A stretch of DNA of 64,000 bases from the NCBI GenBank assembly GCA_965203355.1, contig OZ241889.1:3552001-3616000 (forward strand). Reading direction: 5' to 3'. Under the pieces are notes generated by a model. It saw nothing but the letters and a program-made list of their open reading frames with translations. It made no database searches and had not been told where the DNA came from. The translations under genes were made by a program, and so were the position numbers. This DNA comes from Candidatus Latescibacterota bacterium (lineage in GTDB: Bacteria; Latescibacterota; UBA2968; UBA8231). This document shows positions 25,458-48,322 of this stretch, piece by piece (the first letter of the stretch is position 1; each line of letters begins with the position of its first letter).

Positions 25458-27794
25458 ATGAATCTTTGCATGGCCTTCGCGGCCTTGATCTTGGGCAGCT
25501 ACCCGCTAGCAGCCGATCAGTTGCGCTACGACTCAGCGCGCGATTGGCGTCAATGGCACCTGCCCCTAGGCGCGGTGGAATTGACCCCATCCGGTGCGAT
25601 CCAGCTCACAAAAATCGAGAAGGGCATCAACGCGATACGCGATCTAGACGCCTTCGGCGGCGGCATCCGCCATGCCGGCTCCAACCTCAACACCGCCCGG
25701 TTGGCCATCGACGGCAATCCAGCGACCGGTTGGGCTCCCGACCCAGCGGCCAATCCAGACGAGTGGTTCATCGAGATCGACTTGGGCCGGGCGGTCTCGG
25801 CCAAAAGCATCACGTTGGTGTTCGACGCGGCTGCTCCGCCCTTTGATCTGTTCGACCTGCTGCTTTCGACCGGCGAGCCAGAAACCGACTTTATCGCCGC
25901 GCCGATTGAAGGCTCCTTGGTCTATCGCGTCAAAGCGCGCATCAAGGAAAACACCCTCCATCGGGTGACGTACCACATAGAACAAATCGACGAAGAGCCC
26001 ATCCAATTCATCCGCTTTGAGCCGCTGCTCATAGTGCCCGATGCGCGCCTCGCCGAGATCGAAGTCGAAACCATTGGCGACAACATCGCCCTCGGGCTGT
26101 TGGAGCGCGGCGGGACCGTCGATGTCAACATTAATCTCGCTAGCAACGACTCGCAGCCGCTCGGCAAGGCCCGGGCTTTGTTCGATGGAAACCTGTACGA
26201 GCGCTGGCGGGCGGGCAGAGCCTCTAGGGCCCCAGTCGACATCCTCGCCCACATGGTCCTCGATTTAGGCGCGGTCTATTGGGTCGATCAAACGCGGATC
26301 ATCGGCGGCGTGGTCGTGCGCTCCGGCTTTGGCGGCGGCATTACCACTAGTCACTACGTTTCGCGCCGGCGCTGGGACTTCCGCTTCTACGAGTTTATGA
26401 CCTCGGACGGCTCGCTTTCGCCCGACGGCTCGCGCCTGTGGGCCAAGCACTTTTCCGGTGCTTCGCCTCAGAGCCAGACCGCCAAGGGCCTAGTCGATCA
26501 CCATTTCGACCTAATGCCGACGCGCTTTATTCGCATCTTATGGAAGTATTGGGACACCAGTTGCTATTCCTTTCAGCGGCTCGGCGAGGAAGGGGGCGTC
26601 AACAGAGTCCCCGGCTGCGCCGCGGGTGGAACGACCGACGAGATTCAGATTTTCGGCGAAGGGTTCCCGTCGGAAGTCGATTTCCGCTCGCCCCTGATCG
26701 ACTTGGGGGCCGGCAAGAACCTCAACTCGGTGGAGTGGAGCGGCACCGAGCCGCCCGGGACGCGCATCGAGATTCGCACCCGTACCGGCGACGAAGTATT
26801 GGAGACCTACACGTACCGCGACAAGAATGGCAAGGAAGTTACCGAACGGAAGTACAACAAGCTCATTCCCAGCTTCAAAGGCCCGATCGACACCACCCTC
26901 GCGGCCGGCGGCGACTGGAGTGCGTGGAGCCGCATTTACAGCTTCTCTGGCGAGGCTTTTCTCTCGCCTTCGCCGCGACGCTACCTCGAAATCGACGTGC
27001 GTATGACCTCAGATTCGCCGGCTGTGGGCGCTGCTCTCGACCACTTGGCCGTCCATTTCACTCAGCCGCTCGCTGGCCGCGTACTCGGGGAAATTTCTCC
27101 GCCGCAGGCCCTACCGGGCATGCCGACCGAGTTCACGTATTACTTGCGCCCCGAAAGCACTAGCGGCTTTGACCGCCTCGCGATGGAGTCGGACGCACCC
27201 GTGCATTTTGTGGGCATCTCGCACAATGGAGCCGCCCTCGGCGTGCAAATGGACACCACCGCAAGCGGTTTCCTAGTCCATCTGCCCGACCGCATCCGCA
27301 CCGATCAGCTCATTGAGCTAAAATTTCAGTCTTCCGTGTTTAGGCAATCGACGCGCTTCGACGTCTTTTTGCAGGACAGCCGCCAAGACGAGAGCGTGCG
27401 CCAGCGCGTGGACCCGGGCGACGCCACCGAACAGATTGCGAGCAACACCAACATCGTCACCTTGCCGGTCTCGCGGGAATTACTCGCCAATATGTCCTTC
27501 TCGTCCAAGGCCATCACGCCCAACGGCGATGGGGTCAACGACGAACTGACGCTGGAGATCGCGCTGGTCAATGTGCTAGCACCGCGCCCCTTGCGATTGC
27601 GCCTGTACGACCTCGCCGGTCGCCCGGTGTACGACCGCAGCGAAGACAGCCGCGCCGGCCTGTACCAGCTCGTCTGGGATGGCCGCGATAGCCGCGGCGA
27701 GCGGGTGGCCCCCGGCCTGTACGTGCTCGAAGTCCTGGTGGCGGGCGACGCGGGCGACGAGAAAACGCAGGCACTCATTTCCGTAGCTTACTAG
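25458..27794 (+). CDS. Secreted discoidin/galactose-binding-like + FlgD-Ig protein, 'long' paralog 1
   Basis: Signal peptide; IDG..T.W, IDLG, TRTG, WSAWS, SPSPRRY, TPNGDGVND, WDGRD; ends VAY. Confidence 0.8.
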   Translation: MNLCMAFAALILGSYPLAADQLRYDSARDWRQWHLPLGAVELTPSGAIQLTKIEKGINAIRDLDAFGGGIRHAGSNLNTARLAIDGNPATGWAPDPAANPDEWFIEIDLGRAVSAKSITLVFDAAAPPFDLFDLLLSTGEPETDFIAAPIEGSLVYRVKARIKENTLHRVTYHIEQIDEEPIQFIRFEPLLIVPDARLAEIEVETIGDNIALGLLERGGTVDVNINLASNDSQPLGKARALFDGNLYERWRAGRASRAPVDILAHMVLDLGAVYWVDQTRIIGGVVVRSGFGGGITTSHYVSRRRWDFRFYEFMTSDGSLSPDGSRLWAKHFSGASPQSQTAKGLVDHHFDLMPTRFIRILWKYWDTSCYSFQRLGEEGGVNRVPGCAAGGTTDEIQIFGEGFPSEVDFRSPLIDLGAGKNLNSVEWSGTEPPGTRIEIRTRTGDEVLETYTYRDKNGKEVTERKYNKLIPSFKGPIDTTLAAGGDWSAWSRIYSFSGEAFLSPSPRRYLEIDVRMTSDSPAVGAALDHLAVHFTQPLAGRVLGEISPPQALPGMPTEFTYYLRPESTSGFDRLAMESDAPVHFVGISHNGAALGVQMDTTASGFLVHLPDRIRTDQLIELKFQSSVFRQSTRFDVFLQDSRQDESVRQRVDPGDATEQIASNTNIVTLPVSRELLANMSFSSKAITPNGDGVNDELTLEIALVNVLAPRPLRLRLYDLAGRPVYDRSEDSRAGLYQLVWDGRDSRGERVAPGLYVLEVLVAGDAGDEKTQALISVAY

Positions 27795-27810
27795 TAGGTT
27801 CGCGGGCAAA

Positions 27811-27960
27811 AAAATCTTGACAGTCAAACACATATTTATTTGTTTGTCTCCCGTATTATTGATTTGACAACGGCCAAAAATCGCCCATGAAAGGAGGTTT
27901 GAAGTACTAGCGGCTGCACTTTTGAGCAATTCCGCTCGCTACCTATGGCGGGCTTTTTCC
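27811..27960 (+). promoter_or_regulatory. AT-rich promoter/leader region with palindrome and terminator-like hairpin
   Basis: TTGACAGTCAA palindrome at 27817-27827; AAGGAGGT at 27891-27898; hairpin GCTCGCTA-ccta-TGGCGGGC plus T5 at 27934-27958. Confidence 0.4.
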
Positions 27961-28001
27961 TGCAACCTTTTACGGACCGAACAATTGAGGAGGATTTCAC
28001 A

Positions 28002-28907
28002 ATGCGTAAAGTCTTAGCTTTGACTTTAGGTATCGCTATCGCTGGTGCTGCTTTCGCGCAGGAGCCGGCTGAAGTACCGCTCTATTTCGCCGTAGGCATC
28101 CCCGGCGATCACCTGCCCACCATCGACGGCGACAATTCCGACTGGGCTTGGGTCGATCGCAGCTTTGAGGTCACCATTGACGACATGAATCCGCTGACTG
28201 GCGGGGCCGACGACGCGGATGACCTATTCATCGACCTGATCATCGGCTGGAGCGACGCCAACAACCGCGTCAGTGCCATGATTCACGTCCACGACGACTT
28301 CCTGATCGTCGATAAGAACCCCACCTGCACTTTCCGCGACGACAACTGCGAAGTGCATTTCGACCCGGACAACCAAGGCGGCGGTCCGTACTCGGCCCCC
28401 GAAGACCAAGACTTGCAGCCGGCCTACCAGATGTGCCTGAGCTTCTCCGAGCAGTTCTCGCGCGTCCAAATGTACAACGGCGCGCTGGGCAATTTCGAGC
28501 AGGACGCCCTGAACTTCTGGTGGACCCACACCGACTTCGTCGAGGCCGGTCACGTCAACCAAGGCCAAGAGTACTACTACGAGTTCAGCGCTGAGTTGAT
28601 GGATCCGATCTCGATCAGCGGCGGCCCGGACGCCAGCACGGTGTGGATGCTCGCGGCCGAGCAGACCATCGGCATGTCGATCTCGGTTGACGACGCCGAC
28701 GAAGGGCTCAACGCCAACGGCAACGATCCGCTCACCGAGGAGTGCTGCGAAAACGGGTTCTACTGGCAGGCCCAGTTCAGCATGGCCGAGCAGTTCATGA
28801 ACACCGGCGGCATGCCCGATATCTTCCTGACGCAGATCGAGGAAGCTACGGCGGTCGAGCAAAGCTCTTGGGGCCAGATCAAGTCGCTGGTAGGCGAAGA
28901 GCTATAA
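28002..28907 (+). CDS. Secreted acidic CBM9/DOMON-like sugar-binding protein with SWGQIK tail
   Basis: RBS GAGGAGG; signal peptide ending AFA; PTIDGD.SDW, V.DD, D.CEVHFDPD, YEF, IG.SISVDD.D; ends AVEQSSWGQIKSLV. Confidence 0.7.
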   Translation: MRKVLALTLGIAIAGAAFAQEPAEVPLYFAVGIPGDHLPTIDGDNSDWAWVDRSFEVTIDDMNPLTGGADDADDLFIDLIIGWSDANNRVSAMIHVHDDFLIVDKNPTCTFRDDNCEVHFDPDNQGGGPYSAPEDQDLQPAYQMCLSFSEQFSRVQMYNGALGNFEQDALNFWWTHTDFVEAGHVNQGQEYYYEFSAELMDPISISGGPDASTVWMLAAEQTIGMSISVDDADEGLNANGNDPLTEECCENGFYWQAQFSMAEQFMNTGGMPDIFLTQIEEATAVEQSSWGQIKSLVGEEL

Positions 28908-28946: not shown

Positions 28947-28982
28947 AAGGGGAGGGGAATGGATTCCCCTCCCCTTATTTTG
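28947..28982 (+). terminator. Intrinsic terminator
   Basis: AAGGGGAGGGGAA-tgga-TTCCCCTCCCCTT perfect 13-bp stem followed by ATTTT. Confidence 0.85.
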
Positions 28983-29008: not shown

Positions 29009-30808
29009 ATGTTCAAGTGGCAATTTAGGCTGTTGATCGGCGTTCTATTGGGTGCGCGGGCGGCTGGTGCCGTGGAAGTGTGGACCGCGGGCGGCTCTGG
29101 CTTTGCCTGGCGCGATGTCGGCGAACTGACCGGACTCACCACCGACGCATCGGTCCTGCTCCCAGCCGTGGTGGACTCGACCACCAATGCCGTCGAAATT
29201 CTCACCCTGAAGCGGCGGGGGGGCAACATTTCCTCGCCGCAGTCGAGCGACGATCTGACCGGCCTGCTCACCGACGGCAACGCCGAGACCTTTTGGCGCG
29301 TCACGCGCGAGCGCCGTCCCGACGGCACTTCCATGCTCATCGACTTAGGCGCGATCTTGCCGATCAACCGCATCCGCTTTCAAGGCAACCCCGACATCTT
29401 TCTTCGCGCCTATGAGCTTTTTGTTCACGATGGCGACCCCGCGCAACTGAGAGAAGACCTGCCGATCGCCTTTGTCAACCAAGTCGGCGCCAATCTCGAA
29501 CAAAGCGAATCGGCTATCGACGTGCGCATTCCCCTCCAATTCGTGCGCTTTCTCCGCCTGATTAGCCGCTCGGGCCAAGAATTTATCATCGAGGAAGTCG
29601 AGGTCTTTGGCGATGGCTTCGCGCCCACCGGCAGTTATCTCTCCCAAGTCATCGACCTCGGCGAGGCCGCCAACTTTGGCCAAATTCGCCTCCAGACCCG
29701 CTCCGACCCGTTGACTAACGTGGTATTGCAGACGCGGACCGGCACGGTGCCCGACCCCAAAATTTACTATCGCAAAACCGAGGTCTTTGAGGGCGAGGAT
29801 CGGCAGGAAGAACCCATCTTGCCGATAGGCACGCCCGAGGCGGCCGACGAGTACGACGATCTGACCTCGTCCGACCAGGGCGCGATCATCGACAACATCG
29901 ACGAGTGGAGTCCTTGGTCGGCACCATACGAGGATTTCTTTGGCGATCTACTCTCGCCGGGCAACCGCCGCTACGTCCAGTTCCGCCTGTTGTTTTCGTC
30001 CGAGGACGCACGTCAATCAGCTCTCGTCGATTCGTTCTCCTTTGACTATTCGCTGCCGACACTGGCCGAAGAACTGACGGCCGAAATCACGCCAGCGACG
30101 GTCGCGCTCGGCGCGCGCAATGCCTTCGATTACTACATCCGCTCGACTTTCGGCACGGCCAACGCTGGATTCGACCGGGTGGAAATCCGCACGCCTTTCA
30201 AAGCGACGGTCAACAGCGTCGAGTTAGACGGGATCCCCGTATCCTTTGTGGAGGAGGACGCACAGGACGAGAGCAGGCTGGCCATCCAACTGACCGATGA
30301 CCGAGTGACCGAATCGGGCCAGCTTTTGCGCATCCATTTTGAGGCCATGGTGACGGTCTATGGCACCACTTTTTTCGCCAAGGTTTTCGACAGCCAAACG
30401 GGCGAACTCGGTCAAGACGTGGTGGCCGGAGACGCCACCCCCGCAGCCCAAACCGATCGCCTGTCGATCCAAGGCGCGTTGCGCCAAGAACTCGTCCTCG
30501 AATTGAAGGCGGACCCGCCGATATTTAGCCCCAACGGCGATGGAGTCAACGACCAGTTACAGGTGTCCTACATCTTGCTCCGCGCACTCTCGCAGGTGCC
30601 GGCCGACCTAAGGGTGTACGATCTCGCGGGTCGCCCGGTGCGGCACTTGCAAAAAAGCGGTGCGCTCAACGGGCCACAGCACACCACTTGGGACGGCTTG
30701 GACGAGCGCGGTGCCATGGTGCCACCTGGCCTCTACATCTTGCGGCTTTCCATTGATACGGATACCGGCTCTGAAGATCGGTCGCTGCTAGTGGGGCTAG
30801 CGTACTGA
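29009..30808 (+). CDS. Secreted discoidin-like + FlgD-Ig protein, 'short' paralog
   Basis: Signal peptide; GGSGFAW, LTDGNAETFW, SQVIDLG, TRTG, WSPWS, SPGNRRY, SPNGDGVND; ends LAY. Confidence 0.8.
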   Translation: MFKWQFRLLIGVLLGARAAGAVEVWTAGGSGFAWRDVGELTGLTTDASVLLPAVVDSTTNAVEILTLKRRGGNISSPQSSDDLTGLLTDGNAETFWRVTRERRPDGTSMLIDLGAILPINRIRFQGNPDIFLRAYELFVHDGDPAQLREDLPIAFVNQVGANLEQSESAIDVRIPLQFVRFLRLISRSGQEFIIEEVEVFGDGFAPTGSYLSQVIDLGEAANFGQIRLQTRSDPLTNVVLQTRTGTVPDPKIYYRKTEVFEGEDRQEEPILPIGTPEAADEYDDLTSSDQGAIIDNIDEWSPWSAPYEDFFGDLLSPGNRRYVQFRLLFSSEDARQSALVDSFSFDYSLPTLAEELTAEITPATVALGARNAFDYYIRSTFGTANAGFDRVEIRTPFKATVNSVELDGIPVSFVEEDAQDESRLAIQLTDDRVTESGQLLRIHFEAMVTVYGTTFFAKVFDSQTGELGQDVVAGDATPAAQTDRLSIQGALRQELVLELKADPPIFSPNGDGVNDQLQVSYILLRALSQVPADLRVYDLAGRPVRHLQKSGALNGPQHTTWDGLDERGAMVPPGLYILRLSIDTDTGSEDRSLLVGLAY

Positions 30809-30819: not shown

Positions 30820-33189
30820 ATGTCCAGTCCCCTATTCAATCACGCCACGCGCGCGTTAGGTCTCGTTGTAGCGTTGAGCGGTTTCGCCTTGGGCGAGCGC
30901 GTTTCGTTTGACACCCGCTCTGCTTGGCGCGAATGGACCCACCCGGTCGGTGCCTTAGCCCTCCAAGCGACCGGCCGGATCCAACCGGTACCCGTACGCA
31001 AAAACATCGACGCCGTGCGCAATGCCGAGCACTTTGGCGGCGGCATCCGCCAAGTCGGCAGCAACGCCCGCGACGCCAGCCGCATCATGGATGGCAATCC
31101 GGCCACTAGCTGGTCGCCCGATCCAGCGGACGGCATTGAAAACGCCTATATCGAACTCGACTTGGGCCGCTTGGTGACCTCCGCTGAAATCGCCCTAACG
31201 TTCGACCCGTCCGCGCCGCCCTTTGAGTTTTTCACCATCTTGCTGTCGAGCGGCGAAAAGTTCTTTACCAACGCCTTAGTGCCCGTAGAAGGCACCTTGG
31301 GCTACGGCCTCTCCAAGACCATTGGTTTCAACGAGAGCCACGAACTCGTTCTCGACCCCCGCCAGCGCACCTTGGCCCCGTCCGGCTCGGACGGCTTGGC
31401 CGATGGCCCGGCCGGCGAGTTCAAGGAATCCTCGGGTCTGGTGCGCATTATTCGCATTGAACTGTCCAAGTTTGTCGAGGGAGCGGGCTTGGCCGAGATT
31501 TCGGTTTCCACCATCGGCGACAACATCTCCCTCGGGATCATTGAGCGCGGCGGCAACATCGAACTCATCACCGACTTGCAAGCCGTGCTCTCCGGCGGCG
31601 AGAACATGGTAGATGGCGATATTGTCACCAACTGGGGCATGCAGACGTACCACCAGACCCAGACCGGCTTCGACATCTTCAATCGCATCATCTTCGATTT
31701 AGGGGCCCATTACTGGATTGACCAGATTCGCATCATCGGCGAGCCAGCCGGTGCTCCATCGCGGATGCGCAGTCGCTACGCCAACTTCTTCTGGTACCAG
31801 CTGCTCGCTTCCGACGGCTCGATCTCCCCGGATGGCACCCTGAATTTTCGCGAGCTCGCCTTTGTCGACGACAGCCCGCTAAACGAGACGACGATCCGCA
31901 ACTTCGACCACCAATTCGACTTGCAGAAAATCCGCTATATCAAGCAATACTTCCCCTCTTCTCGCCACGGCGGCGAGCGCAGCGGCACCCACGGCACCTA
32001 CCGCCTCTTCGCGCTGATTAGCGAGTTTCAGATTTACGGCGAAGGCTTTCCCGCCGAGGTGCAGCTCACCTCGCCGATTCTCGACCTCGGCGCCGCCAAG
32101 GCCCTGACTTCGGTCGAGTGGGACGCGGCCGTGCCGCCCGGTACGCGCATCGAGCTCCGCAGTCGCACCGGCAAGGAAGTCGTCGAGACCATTCACTACT
32201 TCGACAAGAAGGGCAAAGAGATCACCGAGCGGAAGTGGAACAAGACGCCTTCGAGCTTGCGCGGGCCGACCGAAACCGCGATCTCGGTCGGTTCGGACTG
32301 GAGCATCTGGAGCGATCCGTACGTGACTTCGGGTGCGCTCTTTAACTCGCCCTCGCCGCGCCGCTATGCCCAACTCGACCTGCGGCTGATTTCCGACGAT
32401 CCCAACGCAGCCCCGTCGCTCAATGCCCTGCATTTGAACATGGAAAATCCCATGGCCCTCGAAACGCGCGCCGAGGTATTTCCCAGCCAAGTTGAACCCG
32501 GCGTCAAAAAGGACTTTACGTACTTTGTCCTGCCCATTTTTGGCGGGCGCGCACAGGGCTTTGACCGCCTGACCATGGCCGCGTCCGTGCCCGTTGATTT
32601 TACCAGTCTAACGTTGGGGGACGAGCCGGTGGAGGTCGCGGTCACCCCAGTCGCCGCCGGGTTTGTCGTCGATCTACCGACCCCGGTTCGTCGCTCGGCG
32701 CTGATCGAGCTTTCGTTCAGCAGCACCATTTACCAAAACCAGACGCGCTTCGACCTTTTCCTCGGCAACAGCAATCTCGACCCGGCGGTGCGCCAGCGCG
32801 TCGACCCAGGCGACGCCAAAGCCGATGTGCCGAGCGAATCCGTCTCCGTGCAACTGCCAATCAACGATCTCTTGCTAGCCAACATCGCCCTTTCGACGGC
32901 GGTACTGACGCCCAATGGCGATGGAATTGGCGACGAGCTAGCCATTGAATTTGACGCGCTCAAACTGGTGACGCCGCGACCCGTTCGGGTCCACATCTAC
33001 GACTTGGCCGGCCGCAACGTGCGCACCCTCGACAGCGGCGCTGGGCTGGCGCGGCGCTATCGCTTCACTTGGAATGGCCGCAACCGCACCGGGGCACTCG
33101 TGAGTCCAGGGACCTACTTAGTGCAAATCGAGGTGGCCGGCGACTCCCAGACCGAGACCGTGCAGCGGCTCGTGCCGGTGGCCTACTGA
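30820..33189 (+). CDS. Secreted discoidin-like + FlgD-Ig protein, 'long' paralog 2
   Basis: Colinear with 25458-27794: GGGIR..GSN, SPILDLG, SRTG, WSIWS, SPSPRRY, TPNGDGIGD; ends VAY. Confidence 0.8.
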   Translation: MSSPLFNHATRALGLVVALSGFALGERVSFDTRSAWREWTHPVGALALQATGRIQPVPVRKNIDAVRNAEHFGGGIRQVGSNARDASRIMDGNPATSWSPDPADGIENAYIELDLGRLVTSAEIALTFDPSAPPFEFFTILLSSGEKFFTNALVPVEGTLGYGLSKTIGFNESHELVLDPRQRTLAPSGSDGLADGPAGEFKESSGLVRIIRIELSKFVEGAGLAEISVSTIGDNISLGIIERGGNIELITDLQAVLSGGENMVDGDIVTNWGMQTYHQTQTGFDIFNRIIFDLGAHYWIDQIRIIGEPAGAPSRMRSRYANFFWYQLLASDGSISPDGTLNFRELAFVDDSPLNETTIRNFDHQFDLQKIRYIKQYFPSSRHGGERSGTHGTYRLFALISEFQIYGEGFPAEVQLTSPILDLGAAKALTSVEWDAAVPPGTRIELRSRTGKEVVETIHYFDKKGKEITERKWNKTPSSLRGPTETAISVGSDWSIWSDPYVTSGALFNSPSPRRYAQLDLRLISDDPNAAPSLNALHLNMENPMALETRAEVFPSQVEPGVKKDFTYFVLPIFGGRAQGFDRLTMAASVPVDFTSLTLGDEPVEVAVTPVAAGFVVDLPTPVRRSALIELSFSSTIYQNQTRFDLFLGNSNLDPAVRQRVDPGDAKADVPSESVSVQLPINDLLLANIALSTAVLTPNGDGIGDELAIEFDALKLVTPRPVRVHIYDLAGRNVRTLDSGAGLARRYRFTWNGRNRTGALVSPGTYLVQIEVAGDSQTETVQRLVPVAY

Positions 33190-39836: not shown

Positions 39837-42800
39837 ATGCTGATCAAATCCCTCCTATTCGCCACCGCGGCCTTCTTTCTGCTATCGGTTACGGCCTTTA
39901 ATCCAGCCACCATAGCGCGCTGGATGGAACGGGCCATCGGCTGGGAACCCCGGCGCGAAGTGCCCGCGACCAGCGAAGCCCCCTCGCTGCGCGAAGCCGT
40001 CGCGCAAATAAACGCCGCCGACCTAGCGCACCACCTCCGCATCCTCACCGCCGACTCGTCCCGCGTTACCGGCTATGCGGGAGCCACCAACGCAGCCCGC
40101 TATATCGAAGGGGCATTCCGCCGACTCGGCCTCCAAGTCACCAGCGAATTTTTCCCCCTTTCCGTTCCGCTAGATCGCGGGGGTCGGCTGCGTTTGGTCG
40201 GCTCGGACGAATCCATCCCCATCTACGGGTTGTGGCCCAATCACGTGCGCACGCCATCCCTGCCACCGGGCGGCGTCTCCGGCCACCTCATAGACTTGGG
40301 GCGCGGCAGTTTGGCCGCGATGGATGGAAAACGGCTAGCAGGTAGTGTCGCGCTGATGGGATTTGGCTCGGGCAACGCCCACGTCCAAGCGCGGGCCTTG
40401 GGCGCACAAGCTATCCTGCTGTACGACGATGGTCGCGTCACGCGCAGCCAGGCCGCGGAAAAATTCCTCCAAGTGCCCGTGGACATCCCGCGCTTTTGGG
40501 TGGAAGCGGCCGACGCCGAACTCCTGCGGCAACACGCGCCCAGCGGCAACGCCCACGTGCATCTCACCGCGCGCATGGATTGGGAGTCGGTCCAGGCACG
40601 CAACATATTCGCCGTGCTCCCGGGCTTGGCCGAGGACATGCCGCGCGGTCAGCGCCGCGAAATCCAGCCGTGGGACGAGCAAATCATCGTCCTGCAAGCA
40701 CACTACGACGCGATCTCGGTCGTCCCGGCGCTGGCCCCGGGCGCCGAGAACGCGACCGGCATGGCGGCACTGCTCGAAATCGCGCGTTTGCTCGTCGCCG
40801 AAGGCACCCGCTACACCGTGCTCTTTTTGGCCACCCCCGGGCACTTTCAAGGCTTGGCCGGCGTCAACGATTTTCTCTACCGCCACGCGCGCAAAAGCGC
40901 GCATTTTCGCGACCAGATCCCGCCCGCCGACCGCATTGACTTCCGCCTCTTCATCGGCCTCGACTTGGCCAGCCACAGCCCGCAAGTCGGCAGCTTTACC
41001 CTGGGCACGTTCTACAACTCGGCTTGGCGCAACGACGACTATCAAAAAAACCTGATGGCGCACTACGCCTCGCGCTTTGCCCGCTACAACCGCGAGATTT
41101 TCGCGGACTCAACGCGCTACCAAGACGCCATTGCCCCGCCGAAGCGGGTGTGGAAAAACTTCATGCCCGTGCGCCTCGCGCTCGACAGCGAGGCCGCGGC
41201 TTTCGTGGGCAAAGAATCGCTCTCCTTCGTCACGCCCAACCAACTGCGCCAGCGCGTTGACACGCCCCTCGACCGGCTCGAATTCGTCGCGCTCGACAAC
41301 CTCGCCGAACAGACTCGCACCCTAGCCGGGCTATTGCTCAAGGCCGCTTCCGACCCGGACTTTTTCAACGACACCAAGCTGACCCTACGCGACTGGGGCC
41401 ACAGCTTAGCAGGCAACATCTACTGGTTCGACCGCGACGTGAATTTTGCCGTGCCCAAGGCCCCGGTGCCCAACGCTCTGGTCACCTATCTCCAGCCCGG
41501 CCCCAACGCCGTGGCCGGCGTGCGCACCCTTATGGCCACGCACGGAGACGAGAGCGGCTACTTCAAGTTCGACATTGTGCGCAACCGCTTTGCCAACCGG
41601 ATCCAAGCCTTTGAACTCGACGAATACGGGCGCATCGTCTCGGCCCCGGACCTCGGCGAAGAAGGCGACAAAACCTATCCGGGCACCCAGCCGTATGGCT
41701 GGTGGGAAAACCGCATGTTGCAGGTCCTGTTTCGCTGCCGCGCCCTGAGCTTTTTGGAGGTGGTTGATCCGCGCTACCTATCGGCCATGGACCGCGTCAA
41801 CGTCCTCGGAGCCAACGACGCGCCGCCGCGTTCCTTTTCCCTCAGCTACATCGAAAACCAGAGCGCCGGGCAAGACCGGGTGGTGCAGGCGGGCGTGGTG
41901 TTCGCCGAGCCGGGCACCCGCGTCAAAATTCTCGCGGGCGAGGGCGCTTTTGGCGGCGAAAGTGCGCTCGCTGGCGTGCGCTACATGCTCACCAATGCGG
42001 ACTCCGCCCTGTTCGCCGACCTCGATCCGGCCCGCGTTGATCTGGCGACCATTGAGCGGGCACAAGGCGCGGGCTTCCGCGTCGAACAAGGACTCATCCC
42101 CTACCCGGCCTGGCAAGCCGCCCGCGACATCTGGATCATCAACGAGGCGCGGATCAAACAAATGGTGCGCCACGGCATCGTCCTCGACCAGCTACAGGCC
42201 ATGCACGAACAAGCGCGCGCTGCCCTGCTCGAAGCCAGCGACAAACGCGCGGCGTTCGATTACACCGGCTACCAGCGCGCCGTCCGCCGCGCCCTCGGGC
42301 TGGAGGCCCGCATCTACCCGGAAATCAAGGCCACGGCCAACGACGCGGTCCGCGCGGTAATTTTCTACTTCGCGCTCCTGTTGCCCTTTGCCTTCTTCTG
42401 CGAGCGTTTCTTCTGCGGCTTCCCGGACGTGCGGCGGCAAATCGCCGGCTTTGTCGGCATCTTCGTCCTCGTGTTTTTGATTCTGCGCTTTGTCCATCCA
42501 GCCTTCAAACTGAGCACCTCGCCGTACATCATCTTTCTCGCGTTTGTCATCCTCGCTTTGGGCGTCCTCGTCATTTTCATCGTCGTGGCGCGCTTTAAGG
42601 CCCTTTTACAACGGCGCAAGGGCGCAGCCGCCGGCCTGCACGAAACCGACGTGGGCCGGATCGCCGCGGGTTTTGCGGCCGTGTTGTTGGGCATCTCCAA
42701 CTTGAGCAAGCGCCGCCTGCGCACCGCGCTGACCGCCGCGACCCTGACCTTTTTGACCTTTACCGTCAACTCCTTTACCTCGGTCAAGTCCAGCTTCGAC

Positions 42801-44429
42801 TTCTATCGCCTGCCGCGCGACACCCCGCCTCTGTACGAAGGCGGCCTCATCCGCGACCGCGCTTGGCGCGGCCTACAGGATTCCATCTTGGACTACGTGC
42901 AGAGCGCGTTTGGCGACCGCGCTTTGGTGGTGCCGCGCGCTTGGTATTTGTCGCCGGTCGAATCCGAGCGGGCCTTTATCGACCTAACCGCCACCGCCAC
43001 CGGCGCGGCCAGTTTCGCGCATGGCGTGGTGGGCCTACAGCCGGCTGAAGCCCAGGTAACGGGCCTGGACGCGCACATCTCGGCGGGCCGCTTCTTTGCG
43101 GCGGGCGACGACCAGGTCGTCATCTTGCCCGACAGCCTAGCCGCGCTCATCGGCATTGGTCCCGAAAACGTGGGCACGGCGTCCATCGCGCTATACGGCG
43201 AGGAGTACCAAGTCATTGGCCTGTTTGACAGCGCGGCCCTGAAAGAAGTCGTCGATCTCGATGGCGAGCGTCTGACGCCGGTGGATACGGTCAAAGACGC
43301 CGGCCTCATCGCGCGCGAGAGCACCGAAGACCCACGCGCCTTGGCCGCCACCGCGGTCGAAACCTTCAACCACCTCGAAGTAATCAACACCCTCTTCTTG
43401 CCCTATGAGCGCGTCCGCGCCATGGACGGCCGCCTGCGCTCCATCGCCATTGCTGCGGACGCGGGCGACCCGGAATTTGTCCAGCGCGTAGAGTCCTTTA
43501 TGTCGCGGGTCGCGCTGACCCTGTTCGTCGGCCAAGGCGACCGGGTCGTGGCGTACAGTTCGATCGGCTCCACCCAAATAAGCGGGGCCGGCCAACTCTT
43601 GGTGCCGATCATCATCGCCGCCTTGATCGTGCTCAATACCATGATGGGAGCCGTGTACGAGCGCGTGCGCGAAATCGGCATCTACAGCGTGGTCGGCTTG
43701 GCCCCCAGCCACATCGGCCTGCTATTCTTGGCCGAGTCCACGGTCTTTGCCACCTTTGGCGCGGTGGTCGGTTACGTCCTCGGCCAAGTCGCCCATCTGT
43801 TCATGCTGCAATACGGGCTGCTGGCCGGCCTGACGCTCAACTACTCGTCGCTGTCGGCGGTGTGGGCTACGATCATCGTCATCGGCACGGTCTATTTATC
43901 GACCTTGTATCCAGCGTGCCTAGCGGCCAACATGGCCGTCCCGGACGTGACGCGGCAATGGCAATTCCCCCCACCCGCTGGCGACCACTGGCGCTTTGAC
44001 TTTCCCTTCACGGTCGGCGGGGCCGAAGTGCCGAGCATGTACGTGTACCTCAAATCGGTTTTCGCCGCCTACGGCGAAGGCTCAATCGGCGACTTCATCG
44101 CCCGCGACATCGAGCTATCCGTCACCCCGGACGGGCCGGAGCCATCCTACGCCATTGCCATGAGCACTTGGCTGGCTCCCTACGACCTCGGCATCAGCCA
44201 ACAGGTACGCCTACGGGCAACTCCCACGGGCGAGCACCGCATCTACAAGATCGAGACCCACATCGAACGCCTCAGCGGCGACGTGGCCTCTTGGCAGCGA
44301 ATGAATCGCAAATTCCTCAACGTGCTGCGCAAGCGATTCCTCGTCTGGCGCACTCTGGCGCCGGGGATCCGCCAAGAGTACCACACGCGGGTGTCGGCCG
44401 AATTTGCCCACAGCGCGGAACCGACATGA
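39837..44429 (+). CDS. M28 peptidase-like domain + FtsX/MacB-like permease fusion (1530 aa)
   Basis: SRVTGY.G, PA-like insert, AHYD...GAENATG; TM block; MacB-like periplasmic domain (GRFF); FtsX motif VYERVREIGIYSVVGLAP...FLAE. Confidence 0.85.
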   Translation: MLIKSLLFATAAFFLLSVTAFNPATIARWMERAIGWEPRREVPATSEAPSLREAVAQINAADLAHHLRILTADSSRVTGYAGATNAARYIEGAFRRLGLQVTSEFFPLSVPLDRGGRLRLVGSDESIPIYGLWPNHVRTPSLPPGGVSGHLIDLGRGSLAAMDGKRLAGSVALMGFGSGNAHVQARALGAQAILLYDDGRVTRSQAAEKFLQVPVDIPRFWVEAADAELLRQHAPSGNAHVHLTARMDWESVQARNIFAVLPGLAEDMPRGQRREIQPWDEQIIVLQAHYDAISVVPALAPGAENATGMAALLEIARLLVAEGTRYTVLFLATPGHFQGLAGVNDFLYRHARKSAHFRDQIPPADRIDFRLFIGLDLASHSPQVGSFTLGTFYNSAWRNDDYQKNLMAHYASRFARYNREIFADSTRYQDAIAPPKRVWKNFMPVRLALDSEAAAFVGKESLSFVTPNQLRQRVDTPLDRLEFVALDNLAEQTRTLAGLLLKAASDPDFFNDTKLTLRDWGHSLAGNIYWFDRDVNFAVPKAPVPNALVTYLQPGPNAVAGVRTLMATHGDESGYFKFDIVRNRFANRIQAFELDEYGRIVSAPDLGEEGDKTYPGTQPYGWWENRMLQVLFRCRALSFLEVVDPRYLSAMDRVNVLGANDAPPRSFSLSYIENQSAGQDRVVQAGVVFAEPGTRVKILAGEGAFGGESALAGVRYMLTNADSALFADLDPARVDLATIERAQGAGFRVEQGLIPYPAWQAARDIWIINEARIKQMVRHGIVLDQLQAMHEQARAALLEASDKRAAFDYTGYQRAVRRALGLEARIYPEIKATANDAVRAVIFYFALLLPFAFFCERFFCGFPDVRRQIAGFVGIFVLVFLILRFVHPAFKLSTSPYIIFLAFVILALGVLVIFIVVARFKALLQRRKGAAAGLHETDVGRIAAGFAAVLLGISNLSKRRLRTALTAATLTFLTFTVNSFTSVKSSFDFYRLPRDTPPLYEGGLIRDRAWRGLQDSILDYVQSAFGDRALVVPRAWYLSPVESERAFIDLTATATGAASFAHGVVGLQPAEAQVTGLDAHISAGRFFAAGDDQVVILPDSLAALIGIGPENVGTASIALYGEEYQVIGLFDSAALKEVVDLDGERLTPVDTVKDAGLIARESTEDPRALAATAVETFNHLEVINTLFLPYERVRAMDGRLRSIAIAADAGDPEFVQRVESFMSRVALTLFVGQGDRVVAYSSIGSTQISGAGQLLVPIIIAALIVLNTMMGAVYERVREIGIYSVVGLAPSHIGLLFLAESTVFATFGAVVGYVLGQVAHLFMLQYGLLAGLTLNYSSLSAVWATIIVIGTVYLSTLYPACLAANMAVPDVTRQWQFPPPAGDHWRFDFPFTVGGAEVPSMYVYLKSVFAAYGEGSIGDFIARDIELSVTPDGPEPSYAIAMSTWLAPYDLGISQQVRLRATPTGEHRIYKIETHIERLSGDVASWQRMNRKFLNVLRKRFLVWRTLAPGIRQEYHTRVSAEFAHSAEPT

Positions 44430-46336
44430 CCGCGCGCGCCTTGCTCATCGGCTTGGGCCTCGTAGTGCTGATCAACATCGGGGCTCCGTACAGCATGTTC
44501 ATTCTCAAGTCCTCGCAGTGGGCGATCAGCTATCTGCCCTTGAGCGTGGTCTTTCTCTTTACCGGCTTGGTCTTTCTCAACGCCACGGCCAAGTCGCTGC
44601 TAAAAGTGCGCGGCCTCGTCACCAGCGAACTCGGCTTGATCTTCATCATGTCCTTGGTCGGCGCCTCGATTCCCACTTGGGGCACTTCTACGTACCTGAT
44701 CGCCGTCATCGCCGCGCCCCAGTATTTTGCCTCGCCCGAAAATCAGTGGCAGAGCAAGGTCGTGCAGTACATAGAAGAATGGCTCGTGCCCAACGACGCG
44801 ATTGCCCTCAAGTGGTTTTACAACGGCCTACCCGCGGGCGAATCCATTCCTTGGGGGGCTTGGATCGTGCCGCTTTTTTGGTGGACCAGCTTGGTGATGG
44901 CCATTTTCTTTTTGTGTCACTGCATGGTCGCGGCACTGCGCAAGCAGTGGGTCGAGTACGAGCGTCTGCCCTTCGCGCTGATGGAATTGCCCCAGCAACT
45001 CATCGCCCCGCCATCGGGCACTAACTGGCCCAGCTTCGTGCGGCAAAAGGCGTTCTGGTTCGGCTTTGCCCTGCCCTTCTGCGTGGTCATGTGGAACGTG
45101 GTCTCGTACTTTACCCCGGCCTTTCCCCCCATTCCGCGCGATCTGTCCGATCCCATTCGCATTGGCCGCGAATTTCCCGCCATCAACACCAACATCAACT
45201 GGGCCATCGTCGGCTTTGCGTATTTCGTCAATCTCGACGTGTCCTTCAGCATGTGGTTTTTCACGGTGCTGACCATGCTGCAACAGGGCCTGTTCAACCG
45301 CTTTGGCTACACTATTGCTGGCCGCGATGTGTACACCCTCGGCCACCCCGGCATCGGTTGGCAGTCATTCGGCGCGTTGATCGCCCTCGTCGTCGGGATG
45401 TTGTGGATGGCGCGCGGCCACCTCGGCGCGATCTGGCGCAAAGCCGTGCACAACGATGCAGACGTCGACGACTCAGACGAGTTGATGTCCTATCGGATGA
45501 TCGTCTTTGGCGGCGGGTTGGCCCTGCTGTACATCGCCTTTTGGCTGTGGCGGGCCGGCGTGAACCCCCCCGCGATCGCGCTCTTCATCTTGGCCACCTT
45601 GGTGCTCTACGTCGGCATTACCCGCATCATCATGGAGGGGGGCTTGCTCTTCAGCCGCGCCCCGCTAGTCGGCCAGACCTTCGTCGGCTACGCACTCGGG
45701 CCGCACGCTACCGCGCAGAGCCACATCGTCATGGGACTGTCCTACGGCTGGCACCACGAGCTCAAAGGCTTCTTCATGGTCGCGGCGGCCAACAGCGCCA
45801 AAGTGTCCGACCACGTCCGCGGCAACCGCCGCTGGCTGAGCTTCTACATCTTCCTCGCGGCCCTCGTAGCCCTGATCGTCTCCATGGCCTTTGCGCTCTA
45901 CATGGGCTACTCCTATGGCGCGTACAACTACGGGGGGTGGATCTTCGGCACCGGGTCGCAAGTGCCCTACGTGGAAAGCCTGCGCAAAATCGACCTCAAG
46001 GCCCCGGATTGGACGCGGTTGGGCCACCTCCTGAGCGGCGCGGGGGCCATGGGGCTGCTAACCTTTATGCGCTACCGCTTCTCGTGGTGGCCCCTGCACC
46101 CGATCGGCATGCCGGTCGGCATCTGCTCCTACCCCATGACCATCATCGTCTTTTCGATCTTCGTCTCTTGGCTGGCCAAATGGGCCATCATGCGCTCGGG
46201 CGGCATCGGCCTCTACCACCGCGCCCAGCCCTTTTTCATCGGCCTCATCCTCGGGTACTTCACCGCGATTGGCCTGTCCTTTTGCATTGACATGATTTGG
46301 TTCCCCGGGCAGGGGCACCCGCTATACGGAAACTAG
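44426..46336 (+). CDS. DUF6785/DUF6784-like polytopic membrane protein (OPT-related)
   Basis: W..W..PL.WW, LRKQWVEYERLPF, WWPLHPIG, PFFIGLILG; ATG overlaps the upstream TGA. Confidence 0.8.
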   Translation: MTARALLIGLGLVVLINIGAPYSMFILKSSQWAISYLPLSVVFLFTGLVFLNATAKSLLKVRGLVTSELGLIFIMSLVGASIPTWGTSTYLIAVIAAPQYFASPENQWQSKVVQYIEEWLVPNDAIALKWFYNGLPAGESIPWGAWIVPLFWWTSLVMAIFFLCHCMVAALRKQWVEYERLPFALMELPQQLIAPPSGTNWPSFVRQKAFWFGFALPFCVVMWNVVSYFTPAFPPIPRDLSDPIRIGREFPAINTNINWAIVGFAYFVNLDVSFSMWFFTVLTMLQQGLFNRFGYTIAGRDVYTLGHPGIGWQSFGALIALVVGMLWMARGHLGAIWRKAVHNDADVDDSDELMSYRMIVFGGGLALLYIAFWLWRAGVNPPAIALFILATLVLYVGITRIIMEGGLLFSRAPLVGQTFVGYALGPHATAQSHIVMGLSYGWHHELKGFFMVAAANSAKVSDHVRGNRRWLSFYIFLAALVALIVSMAFALYMGYSYGAYNYGGWIFGTGSQVPYVESLRKIDLKAPDWTRLGHLLSGAGAMGLLTFMRYRFSWWPLHPIGMPVGICSYPMTIIVFSIFVSWLAKWAIMRSGGIGLYHRAQPFFIGLILGYFTAIGLSFCIDMIWFPGQGHPLYGN

Positions 46337-46339
46337 CGC

Positions 46340-48322
46340 ATGGCCAAAGACCACCCCAAAGCACCCGAGCTGATTCCCGCGGATCTCCAATTTGAACCGG
46401 GCTTCAACCTCAAGACCTTGTGGGCCGCGCTCTTCGTCGGCTTCATCATGCTGCCCGGGGCCATCTACTTGGGGCTGGTGACCGGCCAGAGCATGGCCGG
46501 CGGGGCCGAGTGGGTAACGCTCATCCTCTTCATCGAAATCGCCAAGCGCTCCTTTGCCCGCCTGCGCACCCAAGAGGTCATCATTCTCTACTGGGTGGCC
46601 GGCGGCTTGGTCGTGATGGGCGGCAAGCTGGGCACCGGAGCCGAGCTGTTTGGCGGGCCTTTTGGCGGGCTGATCTGGGACCAGTACTTGATCCAATCGC
46701 CCCAAGCCGACGGCTTGCACCAGTACATCCCCGACTGGGTAGTGCCGCCGCGCGGGTCGCCAGCGCTGGCGGGACGCTCCTTTTTGCACCCGGCTTGGCT
46801 CAAGCCCATCGCCCTGCTCCTGACGGTCATTGTGATGCAGAAGATCAACAGCCTGTCCTTGGGCTACGTGCTGTTCCGCATCACCAACGACATCGAGCGT
46901 TTGCCGTACCCGCTCGCCGCAGTGCAGGCCGGCGGCGCGACCGCCCTCGCCGAAAGCGCCGGGCCGAGCCAAGGCTGGCGCTGGGAGGTCTTTAGCATTG
47001 GGGCCTTTATCGGCATTGTCTGGGGGCTGTTCTACGTAGTTATTCCCACGATCTCGGGCATTTTCTTTACCGAAACCGTGACGATCCTGCCGATTCCGTT
47101 CATCGACCTAACCGTCTCCCTCAAGGGAATACTGCCGGCCAGCATCATGGGCATGGGCACGGACCTCGGGCACGTCATGGTCGGCTTTGTCCTGCCCTTT
47201 TGGATTGTGGTCGGCTCCTTTGCCGCGGCCTTTCTCGTCAACATCCTCGTCAACCCGCTGCTCTACGCCTACGACGTGCTGCACACTTGGGAGCCGGGCA
47301 TGTCGGCGATCCCAACCCAGATCGCCAATTCCTTTGACTTCTGGCTCAGCTTCTCCATTGGCGGCGCCGTCCTCGTGGCCGCGATGGGTTTTGCCATGGT
47401 GGGCAAGACCTTGTGGACTTTGCGCGGGGTTAAGCGCGAGGGCCACGACGGCCGGCTGCCCGCCGGACGCGGCGACATCCCCATCCCTTTCGCCTTGGGC
47501 ATCTGGGCGGTGAGCACACTCGGCTTTGTGGTCTTGGTGTGGTATTTGGTGCCGGAATTCCCTTGGTGGATCAGCGCGTTCTTCGGCTTTGTGTGGACGC
47601 CGATCTACTCGTATATCGGCGCGCGCATGATCGGCCTGACCGGCTCGCCGCAAGGAGCGGCCTTCCCCTATCTGCGCGAAGGCTCCTTTTATCTGTCGGG
47701 CTATCAGGGCGCGGCCGTGTGGTTCGCGCCGATTCCGCTCTTCCAGTGGGGCTACGAAGCAGCGGCCTTCAAGCAACTCGAACTGACCCGCACCCACTTC
47801 GGCAGCATCGTCAAACTGGCCGGCGTTACGTTGCTGATCATGTTTGTCTGTTCGTTTGTGTTCTGGTCTTTTATCTGGAAGCTCGGGCCGATTCCCTCGG
47901 CAGCCTATCCCTATGTGCAGAAGTTTTGGCCTTTCCACGCCACCATGCAGGCGTTCTGGGCCAAGTCAACGCTCGCCGAAGGCGGCAACGAGCTGATCAA
48001 AACCATCATTCGCTGGGAATACGTGCTCACGGGCGCGTTGAGCAGTGCCGGGATTTTGGGCGGGCTGGCGCTCTTGCGCTGGCCGATCGCCCTGTTCTAC
48101 GGATTCATCGGCGGCGTGGGCGCGTGGCCGCACTTTCTGCTGCCCAACTTCATCGGCGCCTTGCTGGGCCGCTATCACTTGCAGAAGCGCTTTGGCGAGG
48201 CACGCTGGCGGGCGTACGCGCCGATTCTGTTGGCCGGCTATTCGTGCGGGATGGGCTTGGTCGGCATGTCTTCCATCGCGCTGGCGCTGATTTCAAAAGC
48301 AGTGTCGAGCATTGTTTTTTAG
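46340..48322 (+). CDS. OPT-superfamily-like membrane transporter
   Basis: About 16 hydrophobic segments; MLPGAIYLGL, DIERLPYPLA, GPIPSAAYPY, PILLAGYSCG. Confidence 0.7.
   Translation: MAKDHPKAPELIPADLQFEPGFNLKTLWAALFVGFIMLPGAIYLGLVTGQSMAGGAEWVTLILFIEIAKRSFARLRTQEVIILYWVAGGLVVMGGKLGTGAELFGGPFGGLIWDQYLIQSPQADGLHQYIPDWVVPPRGSPALAGRSFLHPAWLKPIALLLTVIVMQKINSLSLGYVLFRITNDIERLPYPLAAVQAGGATALAESAGPSQGWRWEVFSIGAFIGIVWGLFYVVIPTISGIFFTETVTILPIPFIDLTVSLKGILPASIMGMGTDLGHVMVGFVLPFWIVVGSFAAAFLVNILVNPLLYAYDVLHTWEPGMSAIPTQIANSFDFWLSFSIGGAVLVAAMGFAMVGKTLWTLRGVKREGHDGRLPAGRGDIPIPFALGIWAVSTLGFVVLVWYLVPEFPWWISAFFGFVWTPIYSYIGARMIGLTGSPQGAAFPYLREGSFYLSGYQGAAVWFAPIPLFQWGYEAAAFKQLELTRTHFGSIVKLAGVTLLIMFVCSFVFWSFIWKLGPIPSAAYPYVQKFWPFHATMQAFWAKSTLAEGGNELIKTIIRWEYVLTGALSSAGILGGLALLRWPIALFYGFIGGVGAWPHFLLPNFIGALLGRYHLQKRFGEARWRAYAPILLAGYSCGMGLVGMSSIALALISKAVSSIVF

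Follow-up and report, generated by a model that had tools for sequence, protein, structure and literature searches.

Two kinds of described system come closest to the locus examined here. SusC/SusD polysaccharide utilization loci (PULs) of Bacteroidota occur in many diversified copies, combine a barrel with several surface carbohydrate-binding proteins and are frequently linked to an inner-membrane permease. In type IX secretion systems (T9SS), cargo with a C-terminal domain (CTD) of type B is bound or anchored by PorP/SprF-like barrels encoded by adjacent genes, according to PMC9143113 and PMC12618676. The Latescibacterota are described in PMC4454575 as probable degraders of algal and detrital polymers, and outer-membrane passage was taken there to occur through non-specific porins. 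We analyzed a 64,000-nt stretch of a Candidatus Latescibacterota genome (contig OZ241889.1, positions 3,552,001 to 3,616,000; the whole stretch is called the window, and positions are counted within it), in which eleven genes at 25458-48322 are predicted to encode secreted proteins, an outer-membrane barrel, two lipoproteins and three inner-membrane proteins.

We tentatively read these genes as a composite, PUL-like locus for nutrient capture and import, assembled from two juxtaposed and probably co-transcribed modules, with a chance of being right that we place close to even and just short of it. The eleven genes are two separable modules because their copy numbers, their linkage and their distribution across 150 genomes differ. 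Module A is the barrel gene with about three adjacent paralogs encoding surface proteins, often accompanied by small lipoprotein, SurA-like and CBM9-like genes. Module B is the M28-FtsX, DUF6785 and OPT-like genes, which we treat as a unit because the three are linked in a complete related genome and because the presence or absence of M28-FtsX and DUF6785 is concordant in 149 of 150 genomes.

Conserved order, copy number and distribution

All eleven open reading frames (ORFs) lie on the + strand, with intergenic gaps of 3-150 nt and three short overlaps. The order is the long paralog par1 (25458..27794, 778 residues), a CBM9-like secreted protein (27945..28907), the short paralog par2 (29009..30808, 599 residues), the long paralog par3 (30820..33189, 789 residues), the short paralog par4 (33228..35000, 590 residues from its likely start), the 871-residue barrel (35087..37702), a 435-residue SurA-like lipoprotein (37690..38997), a small lipoprotein of 263 residues (38994..39785), the 1530-residue M28-FtsX protein (39837..44429), the DUF6785 protein (44426..46336) and a 660-residue OPT-like polytopic permease (46340..48322). 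From par2 to the OPT-like gene, the junctions comprise gaps of 11, 38, 86, 51 and 3 nt and overlaps of 13, 4 and 4 nt. Printed N-termini and the ortholog of a close relative place the likely starts of the CBM9-like, par4 and DUF6785 genes at 28002, 33228 and 44426; the par4 and DUF6785 frames open earlier, at 33069 and 44168. The original prediction had described a co-oriented, tightly packed cluster whose products occupy every layer of the envelope. All eleven genes were found at its coordinates, and the predicted locations were upheld by signal peptides and lipoboxes (judged by eye from printed N-termini), transmembrane (TM) segments and a barrel model. Pfam and NCBIfam searches of the eleven proteins also bore out its statement that an ABC ATPase, a TonB receptor and a secretion-core gene are missing from the cluster: there was no match to ABC_tran or any other ABC ATPase, to a Plug/TonB receptor or to a secretion-core family.

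Gene order was compared across 80 M28-FtsX loci with 10-kb flanks, one genome per species, nearly all of them labelled Latescibacterota or 'Gemmatimonadota' metagenome-assembled genomes. In 33 of these, the orthologous class, the M28-FtsX protein is 63-94% identical and the genes follow the window's order; the small lipoprotein is present in 31, the barrel and the SurA-like protein in 30 each, DUF6785 in 29, the paralogs in 28 and the OPT-like gene in 27. Absences fall mostly at contig ends, and two loci (L005 and L029) are genuinely different. Each of par2, par3 and par4 retains its own ortholog across these loci (60-93%, 52-92% and 58-94% identical, respectively). Conservation across the 33 loci exceeds chance for this arrangement, and the gene-neighborhood check suggested with the original prediction came out in its favor, since about 30 related Latescibacterota loci retain the gene order that runs from par2 through the final membrane gene. 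The other 47 loci form a diverged class with M28-FtsX about 50% identical. Here, a barrel or paralog was found within 10 kb in 0 of 47 loci, an OPT-like gene in 35 and DUF6785 in 22, and a few have relatives of the lipoprotein or the SurA-like protein.

Copy numbers were taken from a complete 4.5-Mb related genome, G001, in which the locus shares about 94% identity with the window. It carries 28 barrels, about 76 paralogs, about 70 other proteins bearing the paralogs' C-terminal tail only, 23 DUF6785 matches, 13 small lipoproteins, 11 SurA-like proteins, 5 OPT-like proteins and 5 full M28-FtsX proteins plus one fragment. A paralog lies within 10 kb of every one of the 28 barrels, mostly as three adjacent copies, and the nearest is less than 500 nt away in 19 cases. 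DUF6785 occurs within 20 kb of 17 of the 28 barrels, once at a distance of 46 nt, and by their coordinates most small lipoprotein genes are within about 10 kb of a barrel. All six M28-FtsX matches have DUF6785 within about 500 bp, and all five OPT-like genes map to within about 6 kb of an M28-FtsX gene. Other genes in or near the G001 cassettes encode tetratricopeptide repeat (TPR) and leucine-rich repeat (LRR) proteins, SBP_bac_5 in one cassette, an MFS transporter beside another and a MacB-like permease. The 20 proteins tested there, these among them, include no hydrolase.

Across the phylum, the barrel was found in 93, M28-FtsX in 137 and DUF6785 in 136 of 150 genomes, three counts that we assume, from their identical search parameters, to concern the same genomes; cross-tabulation was limited to genomes listed in all three. 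The 13 genomes without M28-FtsX all possess the barrel and all lack DUF6785. Conversely, M28-FtsX occurs in each of the 20 listed barrel-negative genomes and DUF6785 in 19. In one genome, as many as 87 barrels and 88 DUF6785 proteins appear as first-look candidates, and barrel-free genomes still reach 68 DUF6785 candidates. The phylogenetic-profile check attached to the original prediction therefore gave a divided answer: M28-FtsX and DUF6785 travel together, and the barrel cassette is distributed apart from them.

The M28-FtsX and DUF6785 genes, which overlap by 4 nt in the window, are separated in many relatives (L003-L023) by mobile inserts of about 0.7-4 kb that leave both genes intact, so that the junction looks like an insertion hot spot within the operon. 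From their N-terminal motifs, we take the insert ORFs to resemble a PIN/VapC toxin, a Fic-type protein and a DUF262-type nuclease. An ABC ATPase hidden in these inserts was considered and set aside, since the motifs look PIN, Fic and DUF262-type instead.

We propose that par1 and the CBM9-like gene form a separate unit upstream of Module A, which would then run from par2 to the small lipoprotein gene. A terminator-like hairpin with a 13-pair stem follows the CBM9-like gene (28947..28976, + strand), a shorter hairpin follows par4, and another with a 20-pair stem lies 27 nt past the last gene (48349..48395, + strand). It should be noted that the total of hairpin sites does not exceed that of shuffled sequences and that the hairpin at 28947 is distinguished by its stem length and position only. 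Sigma-70 promoter scans gave nothing above shuffles, and Rfam gave no match on 24000-50000. Contigs about 90-93% identical to the window occur in metatranscriptome-labelled runs from four studies (with sponge, marine and plain metagenome labels) and touch the genes from par2 through the OPT-like gene; single contigs of relatives cover 29003-38583 and 29003-39119. This fits expression and co-transcription of par2 through the lipoprotein gene in relatives, with carried-over DNA as an alternative source of the contigs.

Predicted surface, periplasmic and inner-membrane proteins

The par1-par4 proteins combine an F5/8-type-C (discoidin) domain with a C-terminal tail that matches FlgD_ig and CHU_C in Pfam. 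Their mutual identity is 26-40%, par1 and par3 being 40% identical over their full length, and the short paralogs lack the first ~190 residues of the long ones. In par1, which has a signal peptide, a T9SS-like tail and a 92% identical ortholog in G001, F5_F8_type_C (36.3 bits) and CHU_C (33.7 bits) are both above cut-off. The CHU_C cut-off (PF13585, 27 bits) is also passed by par2 (29.3 bits), par3 (29.5 bits) and parB2 of a second cassette described below (27.4 bits). The tail of par4 matches FlgD_ig at 32.6 bits, and its signal peptide begins after an internal Met. Matches to TIGR04183 and TIGR04131 in the paralogs stay under their cut-offs, and the tails end in a conserved Val/Ala-Ala/Val-Tyr motif. 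An AlphaFold2 (AF2) model of par3 is all-beta (pLDDT 86.1) and shows two tandem discoidin/CBM32-like jelly rolls, followed by Ig-like domains and a C-terminal sandwich; its best Foldseek matches are neuropilin b1b2 and ZmpB CBM32-1/2. The CBM9-like protein has a weak CBM9_1 match (E 4.6e-4, 20.6 bits, below the cut-off of 23.4). Its G001 ortholog begins at an internal Met, and paralogs of ~300-340 residues recur in other cassettes.

The FlgD_ig tail is also found on an unrelated di-haem peroxidase encoded just upstream (22794-24404, minus strand), which argues that it is a general sorting tag in this organism and is not specific to the locus. SprA, the T9SS translocon, was over cut-off in five of five related genomes, and the same genomes encode PorV-like proteins (E 1e-37 to 1e-44, below cut-off). 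With SprA in relatives and T9SS-type tails on the paralogs, these proteins would have a general export route and need no private one. We infer that they leave the cell by the general T9SS, the presence of which in this organism is extrapolated from related genomes. The dedicated export route offered as one option in the original prediction is accordingly unneeded.

Two further arrangements were seen inside or next to cassettes. Locus L122 (G001:C1:1046000-1056000) adjoins a barrel cassette and contains a tandem array of at least five proteins of ~700 residues with near-identical termini and the same sorting tail; here a secreted protein seems to have been amplified in tandem recently. Ordinary 800-residue MacB_PCD + FtsX permeases, with no ATPase gene, are encoded at L121:187-2649 and, in G001, between the CBM9-like and par2 orthologs (L082:16597-18972). 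The window has no such permease at the place matching the latter.

The 871-residue barrel has no match in Pfam or NCBIfam, and has 656 relatives among 50%-identity representatives. An AF2 model built from 49 relatives (pLDDT 80.7, pTM 0.81) predicts a large outer-membrane beta-barrel of about 26-28 strands (a manual count of DSSP strands in the model), with an inserted domain at ~240-370 and an Asp-rich loop at ~485-575 that, as we read the family consensus, resembles calcium-binding repeats. Its orthologs are 74-97% identical. Foldseek ranks SlpA, MtrB and LptD first, and porins are also among the fold matches; kinship to any of the three is not claimed, since the TM-score on the query is at most 0.29 and Z at most 13.1. 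VIA-align of the model returns generic barrels only. Of the 49 relatives, 7 weakly match the SlpA barrel family and none matches PF11751 (PorP/SprF) at E<=0.01; Plug and TonB_dep_Rec were found neither in these 49 relatives nor in the 11 cluster proteins at E<=0.01. A PorP/SprF search of five related genomes gave no match in any of them, and its control was also found nowhere, which makes the search uninformative on absence. When the barrel, the SurA-like protein and the small lipoprotein were compared with the sequences of solved structures, the matches were at chance level alone, and in the ESM Atlas the barrel and the small lipoprotein match unnamed clusters only. Judged from its model, the protein is a member of a new, unnamed family of outer-membrane barrels.

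The SurA-like protein has a lipobox and an EpsD-type PPIase N-terminal match below cut-off (NCBIfam, E 4e-6), and Pfam finds no rotamase match in the window's 435-residue copy. All six longer paralogs tested from other cassettes bear PPIC-type rotamase domains, and we consider the family SurA/PpiD-like for this reason. The small lipoprotein, whose lipobox was likewise recognized by eye, matches no named family in Pfam, NCBIfam, solved structures or the ESM Atlas. In one type of paralogous M28-FtsX locus (L120:936-2472, L068:1624-3206), the lipoprotein, SurA-like and OPT-like genes have an ExbB gene and two ExbD genes directly upstream. No TonB_C-type gene was recognized in these loci; the small lipoprotein occupies the position expected for TonB.

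The M28-FtsX protein passes the Pfam cut-offs for FtsX (PF02687, 40.8 bits, cut-off 25.5) and Peptidase_M28 (PF04389, 37.2 bits, cut-off 21.3), and several of its homologs have PF12704 precomputed. A hydrophobicity scan gives about eight distinct hydrophobic segments. The N-terminal half consists of an anchor, ~800 periplasmic residues (M28/PA-like) and three TM segments. The second half is a MacB-like unit of one TM segment, a ~270-residue periplasmic domain and the FtsX three-TM bundle, and a conserved 170-residue C-terminal domain closes the protein. We read this as two FtsX-type units of four TM segments each, fused in one chain. Sequence similarity was seen to YtrF, MacB, LolC and LolF, and nicalin was also matched. 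There are 707 homologs, more than 100 of them with at least 50% identity over the full length, and the mean column identity of 12 sequences is 66%. In an alignment with the aminopeptidase 2ek8, the Glu-Glu pair corresponds to His336-Phe337, the bridging Asp to Glu304 and the Asp-Asp pair to Glu304-Asn305, the catalytic and zinc-ligand roles of these residues being those known from M28 enzymes. His336, Phe337 and Glu304 are invariant in 12 diverse relatives, and position 289 (the first His ligand) is not conserved. With an invariant His-Phe in place of the catalytic Glu-Glu pair, the M28 domain very probably has no peptidase activity. In just 6 of the 80 M28-FtsX loci did a motif scan find, within 10 kb, an ORF containing both ABC motifs, about 8 kb away.

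The second protein of Module B matches DUF6785 (Pfam, E 2e-113) and DUF6784 (E 2e-24), and 12 hydrophobic windows, some of them overlapping, were counted both in the ORF from 44168 and in the 660-residue protein. Neither protein has a PF03169 match in Pfam. Homologs of the 660-residue protein are named 'peptide transporter' by their sources, and relatives ~58% identical have PF03169 precomputed. Its armadillo matches were dismissed, as they come from one 23-residue low-complexity stretch. Comparison of the 660-residue family with DUF6785 by hhalign gave a probability of 80% (E 1.4e-5), collinear over 443 columns; a direct BLASTP of the two proteins was not significant. Among ten neighbors of stand-alone DUF6785 genes that were tested, seven belong to catabolism or uptake (a sulfatase, SBP_bac_1, a GFO/IDH/MocA oxidoreductase, a Plug-bearing TonB-dependent receptor, a gamma-glutamyltranspeptidase, GH32 and GH116); the other three are a GmrSD nuclease, a DUF3604 protein and an M28/N-acetyltransferase fusion. 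On the strength of these neighbors, its great multiplicity and its remote similarity to OPT, DUF6785 is most plausibly a substrate-specific importer. A literature search found no paper on DUF6785 and no tested substrate for DUF6785 or the OPT-like family. In G001, a protein of 880 residues with M28/DUF4910-like and aminoglycoside N-acetyltransferase-like domains is encoded directly upstream of a stand-alone DUF6785 gene (L125:3956-6598), a second association of an M28-like domain with DUF6785.

Capture and import weighed against other readings

Gene content, folds, conserved order, copy numbers, co-distribution and the T9SS of relatives are observed; in what follows, all binding, the transport direction, the substrate and any coupling between Modules A and B are deduced. 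The paralogs would be exported by Sec and then by general type IX secretion through their C-terminal sorting domains, and would stay on the cell surface bound to the adjacent 871-residue barrel, like type-B cargo on PorP/SprF-like barrels. Their tandem discoidin/CBM32-like domains would hold glycans or glycoconjugates, and the wide barrel would admit fragments to the periplasm, where the SurA-like chaperone and the lipoprotein of the cassette may assist assembly of the complex or pass substrate on. The two OPT-superfamily-like permeases would import the fragments (peptides, glycopeptides or oligosaccharides) on the proton gradient. The presumably dead M28/PA domain of the double-FtsX protein would serve them as a periplasmic receptor or scaffold, and not as a peptidase or an ATP-driven pump.

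We read the locus as one for uptake because many copies occur per genome, as in substrate-specific uptake loci. The paralogs are seen as surface binding proteins because of their tandem CBM32/discoidin domains, their CHU_C tails and the SprA and PorV-like proteins of relatives. Between the import machine and the surface-layer export route that the original prediction offered side by side, capture and import is favored by the OPT-like protein, the remote kinship of DUF6785 to it and the catabolic and uptake neighbors of DUF6785, and the export option loses its ground since no private route is needed. The earlier phrase 'OPT-like carriers instead of SusC/D' confuses two layers: the carriers belong to the inner membrane, and it is the barrel that holds the SusC-like position.

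Several points count against capture and import. No hydrolase was found in the eleven genes or in the 20 other G001 proteins tested, and the barrel has no Plug or TonB-receptor signature, nor does anything indicate how passage would be gated or powered. Each paralog and the barrel show unusually strong conservation between genomes (barrel 74-97%, par4 58-94%), which fits a structural complex more readily than glycan binders that evolve fast. The known roles of FtsX/MacB-type proteins lie in export and mechanotransmission and not in import. Modules A and B each occur alone in many genomes, so their coupling here may be mere adjacency. The link of DUF6785 to OPT is a single profile comparison at 80% probability, the RNA-library contigs come from relatives ~90-93% identical and are possibly carried-over DNA, and the T9SS of the window's organism is extrapolated from its relatives.

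The conservation of the paralogs would also suit the main alternative, itself rather unlikely, in which Module A is a surface-display or adhesin cassette, the barrel is the anchor or shuttle of three lectin-like T9SS proteins and Module B is unrelated. Many such cassettes would provide the cell with a diverse coat for adhesion to particles, algae or a host, with the SurA-like protein, the lipoprotein and TPR proteins as assembly factors. All 28 G001 barrels do adjoin CTD-bearing paralogs, type-B (CHU_C) tails are present, and cargo/barrel pairs encoded side by side have precedent in PMC9143113 and PMC12618676. Chaperone, TPR and LRR genes abound in the cassettes and enzymes are missing from them, each paralog is highly conserved among orthologs, the two modules are separable, and a display barrel is also suggested by the weak SlpA-family matches of 7 of the 49 barrel relatives and by the lack of PorP/SprF matches in five of five related genomes, though the control of that search was found nowhere. 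However, a DUF6785 permease lies within 20 kb of 17 of the 28 barrels, 46 nt away in one case, and DUF6785 opens the second cassette of the window; SBP_bac_5 sits inside one G001 cassette and an MFS transporter beside another. Moreover, ~26-28 strands far exceed what an anchor needs, PorP_SprF being a family of 273 positions, and no sequence relation to PorP/SprF was found in the 49 barrel relatives.

Two further alternatives were weighed. That the eleven genes are one obligate machine spanning both membranes, whether importer or assembly route for a layer of paralogs, is the strong form of the original prediction and is now very improbable. The genes are co-oriented and abut or overlap, their order is kept down to 63% M28-FtsX identity, and the 20-pair terminator-like hairpin appears only after the last gene. 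Against this, the modules distribute independently (barrel 93, M28-FtsX 137 and DUF6785 136 of 150 genomes): 13 genomes have the barrel with neither M28-FtsX nor DUF6785, and 20 of 20 listed barrel-negative genomes have M28-FtsX. In addition, neither barrel nor paralogs occur within 10 kb at any of the 47 paralogous M28-FtsX loci, G001 has 28 barrels to 5 M28-FtsX trios, relatives tolerate mobile inserts between M28-FtsX and DUF6785 without loss of either gene, and the paralogs have the general T9SS route. A little less improbable, and still quite unlikely, is a reading of Module B as a device for envelope maintenance or export, akin to MacB/Lol/FtsEX: the double-FtsX protein, powered by an ATPase encoded elsewhere, would shift or activate something in the periplasm, and the OPT-like proteins would recycle the products. 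The FtsX domain, the similarity to MacB, LolC, LolF and YtrF, the occurrence in 137 of 150 genomes, as for a housekeeping function, the very high conservation (66% mean column identity in 12 sequences) and the ExbB and ExbD genes directly upstream in one paralogous locus type all speak for such a device. No ABC ATPase is present in the cluster, however, and an ORF with two ABC motifs comes within 10 kb in only 6 of 80 loci, some 8 kb off; 3-5 diverged M28-FtsX copies per genome suit substrate classes better than a single housekeeping role, and M28-FtsX is always paired with permease-like proteins.

Capture and import can also be put in a bolder form, which we regard as doubtful: a Latescibacterota 'utilisome' without SusC/D or a TonB-plug receptor, in which a new family of barrels of ~26-28 strands, each with three T9SS-delivered lectins in a fixed hetero-complex, would feed DUF6785 as a new, greatly expanded importer family and offshoot of the OPT superfamily, and the double-FtsX protein would be the master partner of these importers, with its dead aminopeptidase domain as periplasmic substrate receptor. 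If this were true, the PUL principle would have been invented a second time, independently, and T9SS type-B-like anchoring would have its first role in nutrient uptake.

The Latescibacterota are widespread and uncultured, and G001 makes a large genomic investment (28 barrels, ~76 paralogs, 23 DUF6785) in four protein families that have neither a name nor a tested function. Should the cassettes serve uptake, they would be what PULs are elsewhere and, like PULs, could help to predict from a genome the substrate niche of its owner. Should they serve display, the T9SS principle of cargo plus cognate barrel extends beyond Bacteroidota and to a new barrel family. Under either reading, DUF6785/DUF6784, the barrel family and the M28-FtsX family gain a first genomic context and testable hypotheses.

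Surrounding DNA and comparison with described systems

A DUF6785 paralog (56257..58209, + strand; Pfam E 4e-122), 33% identical to the first copy, opens a second cassette and is followed by parB1, parB2 and parB3 (58236..63999, + strand; FlgD_ig, CHU_C and F5_F8 matches), the last of which is cut by the window end. The recurrence of DUF6785 with paralogs at 56257-64000, pointed out in the original prediction, is real, and in the close relative G001 the array is succeeded, beyond the point where the window stops, by a barrel gene (product 40% identical to that of 35087), a CBM9-like gene, a lipoprotein gene and a SurA-like gene. The 1.1 kb at 48323-49403, between the OPT-like gene and a sodium:solute symporter, contains no convincing gene (a 242-residue ORF is Pro/Arg-rich); it has no Rfam match and is kept at 57-83% (translated) in most close relatives. 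Two overlapping WD40 ORFs of 513 and 398 residues, in different frames, occupy 52803-55432, the second ending with an FlgD-like tail; possibly a single gene for a secreted beta-propeller of ~870 residues has been split here by a frameshift or an assembly error. Three FG-GAP/ASPIC-UnbV proteins are encoded at 12172-13800, 17466-20597 (minus strand) and 51174-52769, one fused to TPR repeats, and relatives of these recur beside G001 cassettes. At 621-5569, an AAA_15/AAA_21 (AbiEii-like) ATPase adjoins a DUF499 protein, and the pair looks like an anti-phage defence system unrelated to the cluster.

The original prediction knew of no characterized system of this composition, and our literature search agrees with it: no paper was found on the composition of the cluster, on T9SS in Latescibacterota or on FlgD Ig-like tails with type IX secretion, the supplements of PMC4454575, which may list transporters, lying outside the search. 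The locus belongs to none of the SusC/D, PorP/SprF and canonical MacB families, as defining features of these were looked for and found absent. The DUF6785 protein aligns collinearly with the 660-residue family, relatives of which carry the OPT family domain PF03169, whereas the window's own two proteins do not reach it. Like nicalin and the transferrin receptor, the M28-FtsX protein has an M28 fold without the Glu-Glu pair; unlike them, it is bacterial, is fused to FtsX units and has an invariant His-Phe at the former Glu-Glu site. With the type VII ABC permeases MacB, LolCE and FtsX it shares an FtsX domain above cut-off and a large periplasmic domain between TM1 and TM2, and differs from these in its two fused 4-TM units, its 800-residue M28/PA-like module and its extra C-terminal domain, as well as in having no linked ATPase (in the cluster; the candidates at 6 of 80 loci are ~8 kb off).

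As in T9SS cargo, the C-terminal domains of par1-par3 and parB2 match the CTD family CHU_C above cut-off, and, as in the SprB-SprF and PG1035-PorP pairs, genes for CTD-bearing surface proteins with CHU_C tails adjoin a barrel gene. In contrast to those pairs, the barrel here has 871 residues, against a PorP_SprF family of 273 positions, none of its 49 relatives matches PF11751, three cargo genes accompany each barrel and the tails match FlgD_ig too. The SusC/SusD PULs share with the locus all the features named at the outset, namely many diversified copies, a barrel with several surface carbohydrate-binding proteins and the link to an inner-membrane permease. The TonB-dependent Plug/barrel family and the SusD family are absent from its eleven proteins (Pfam, NCBIfam), and neither carbohydrate-active enzymes (CAZymes) nor regulators are part of the cassette (0 of 20 extra G001 proteins are CAZymes). 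Unlike in PULs, the surface proteins are not lipoproteins but carry T9SS tails, and the inner-membrane partner is DUF6785/OPT-like.

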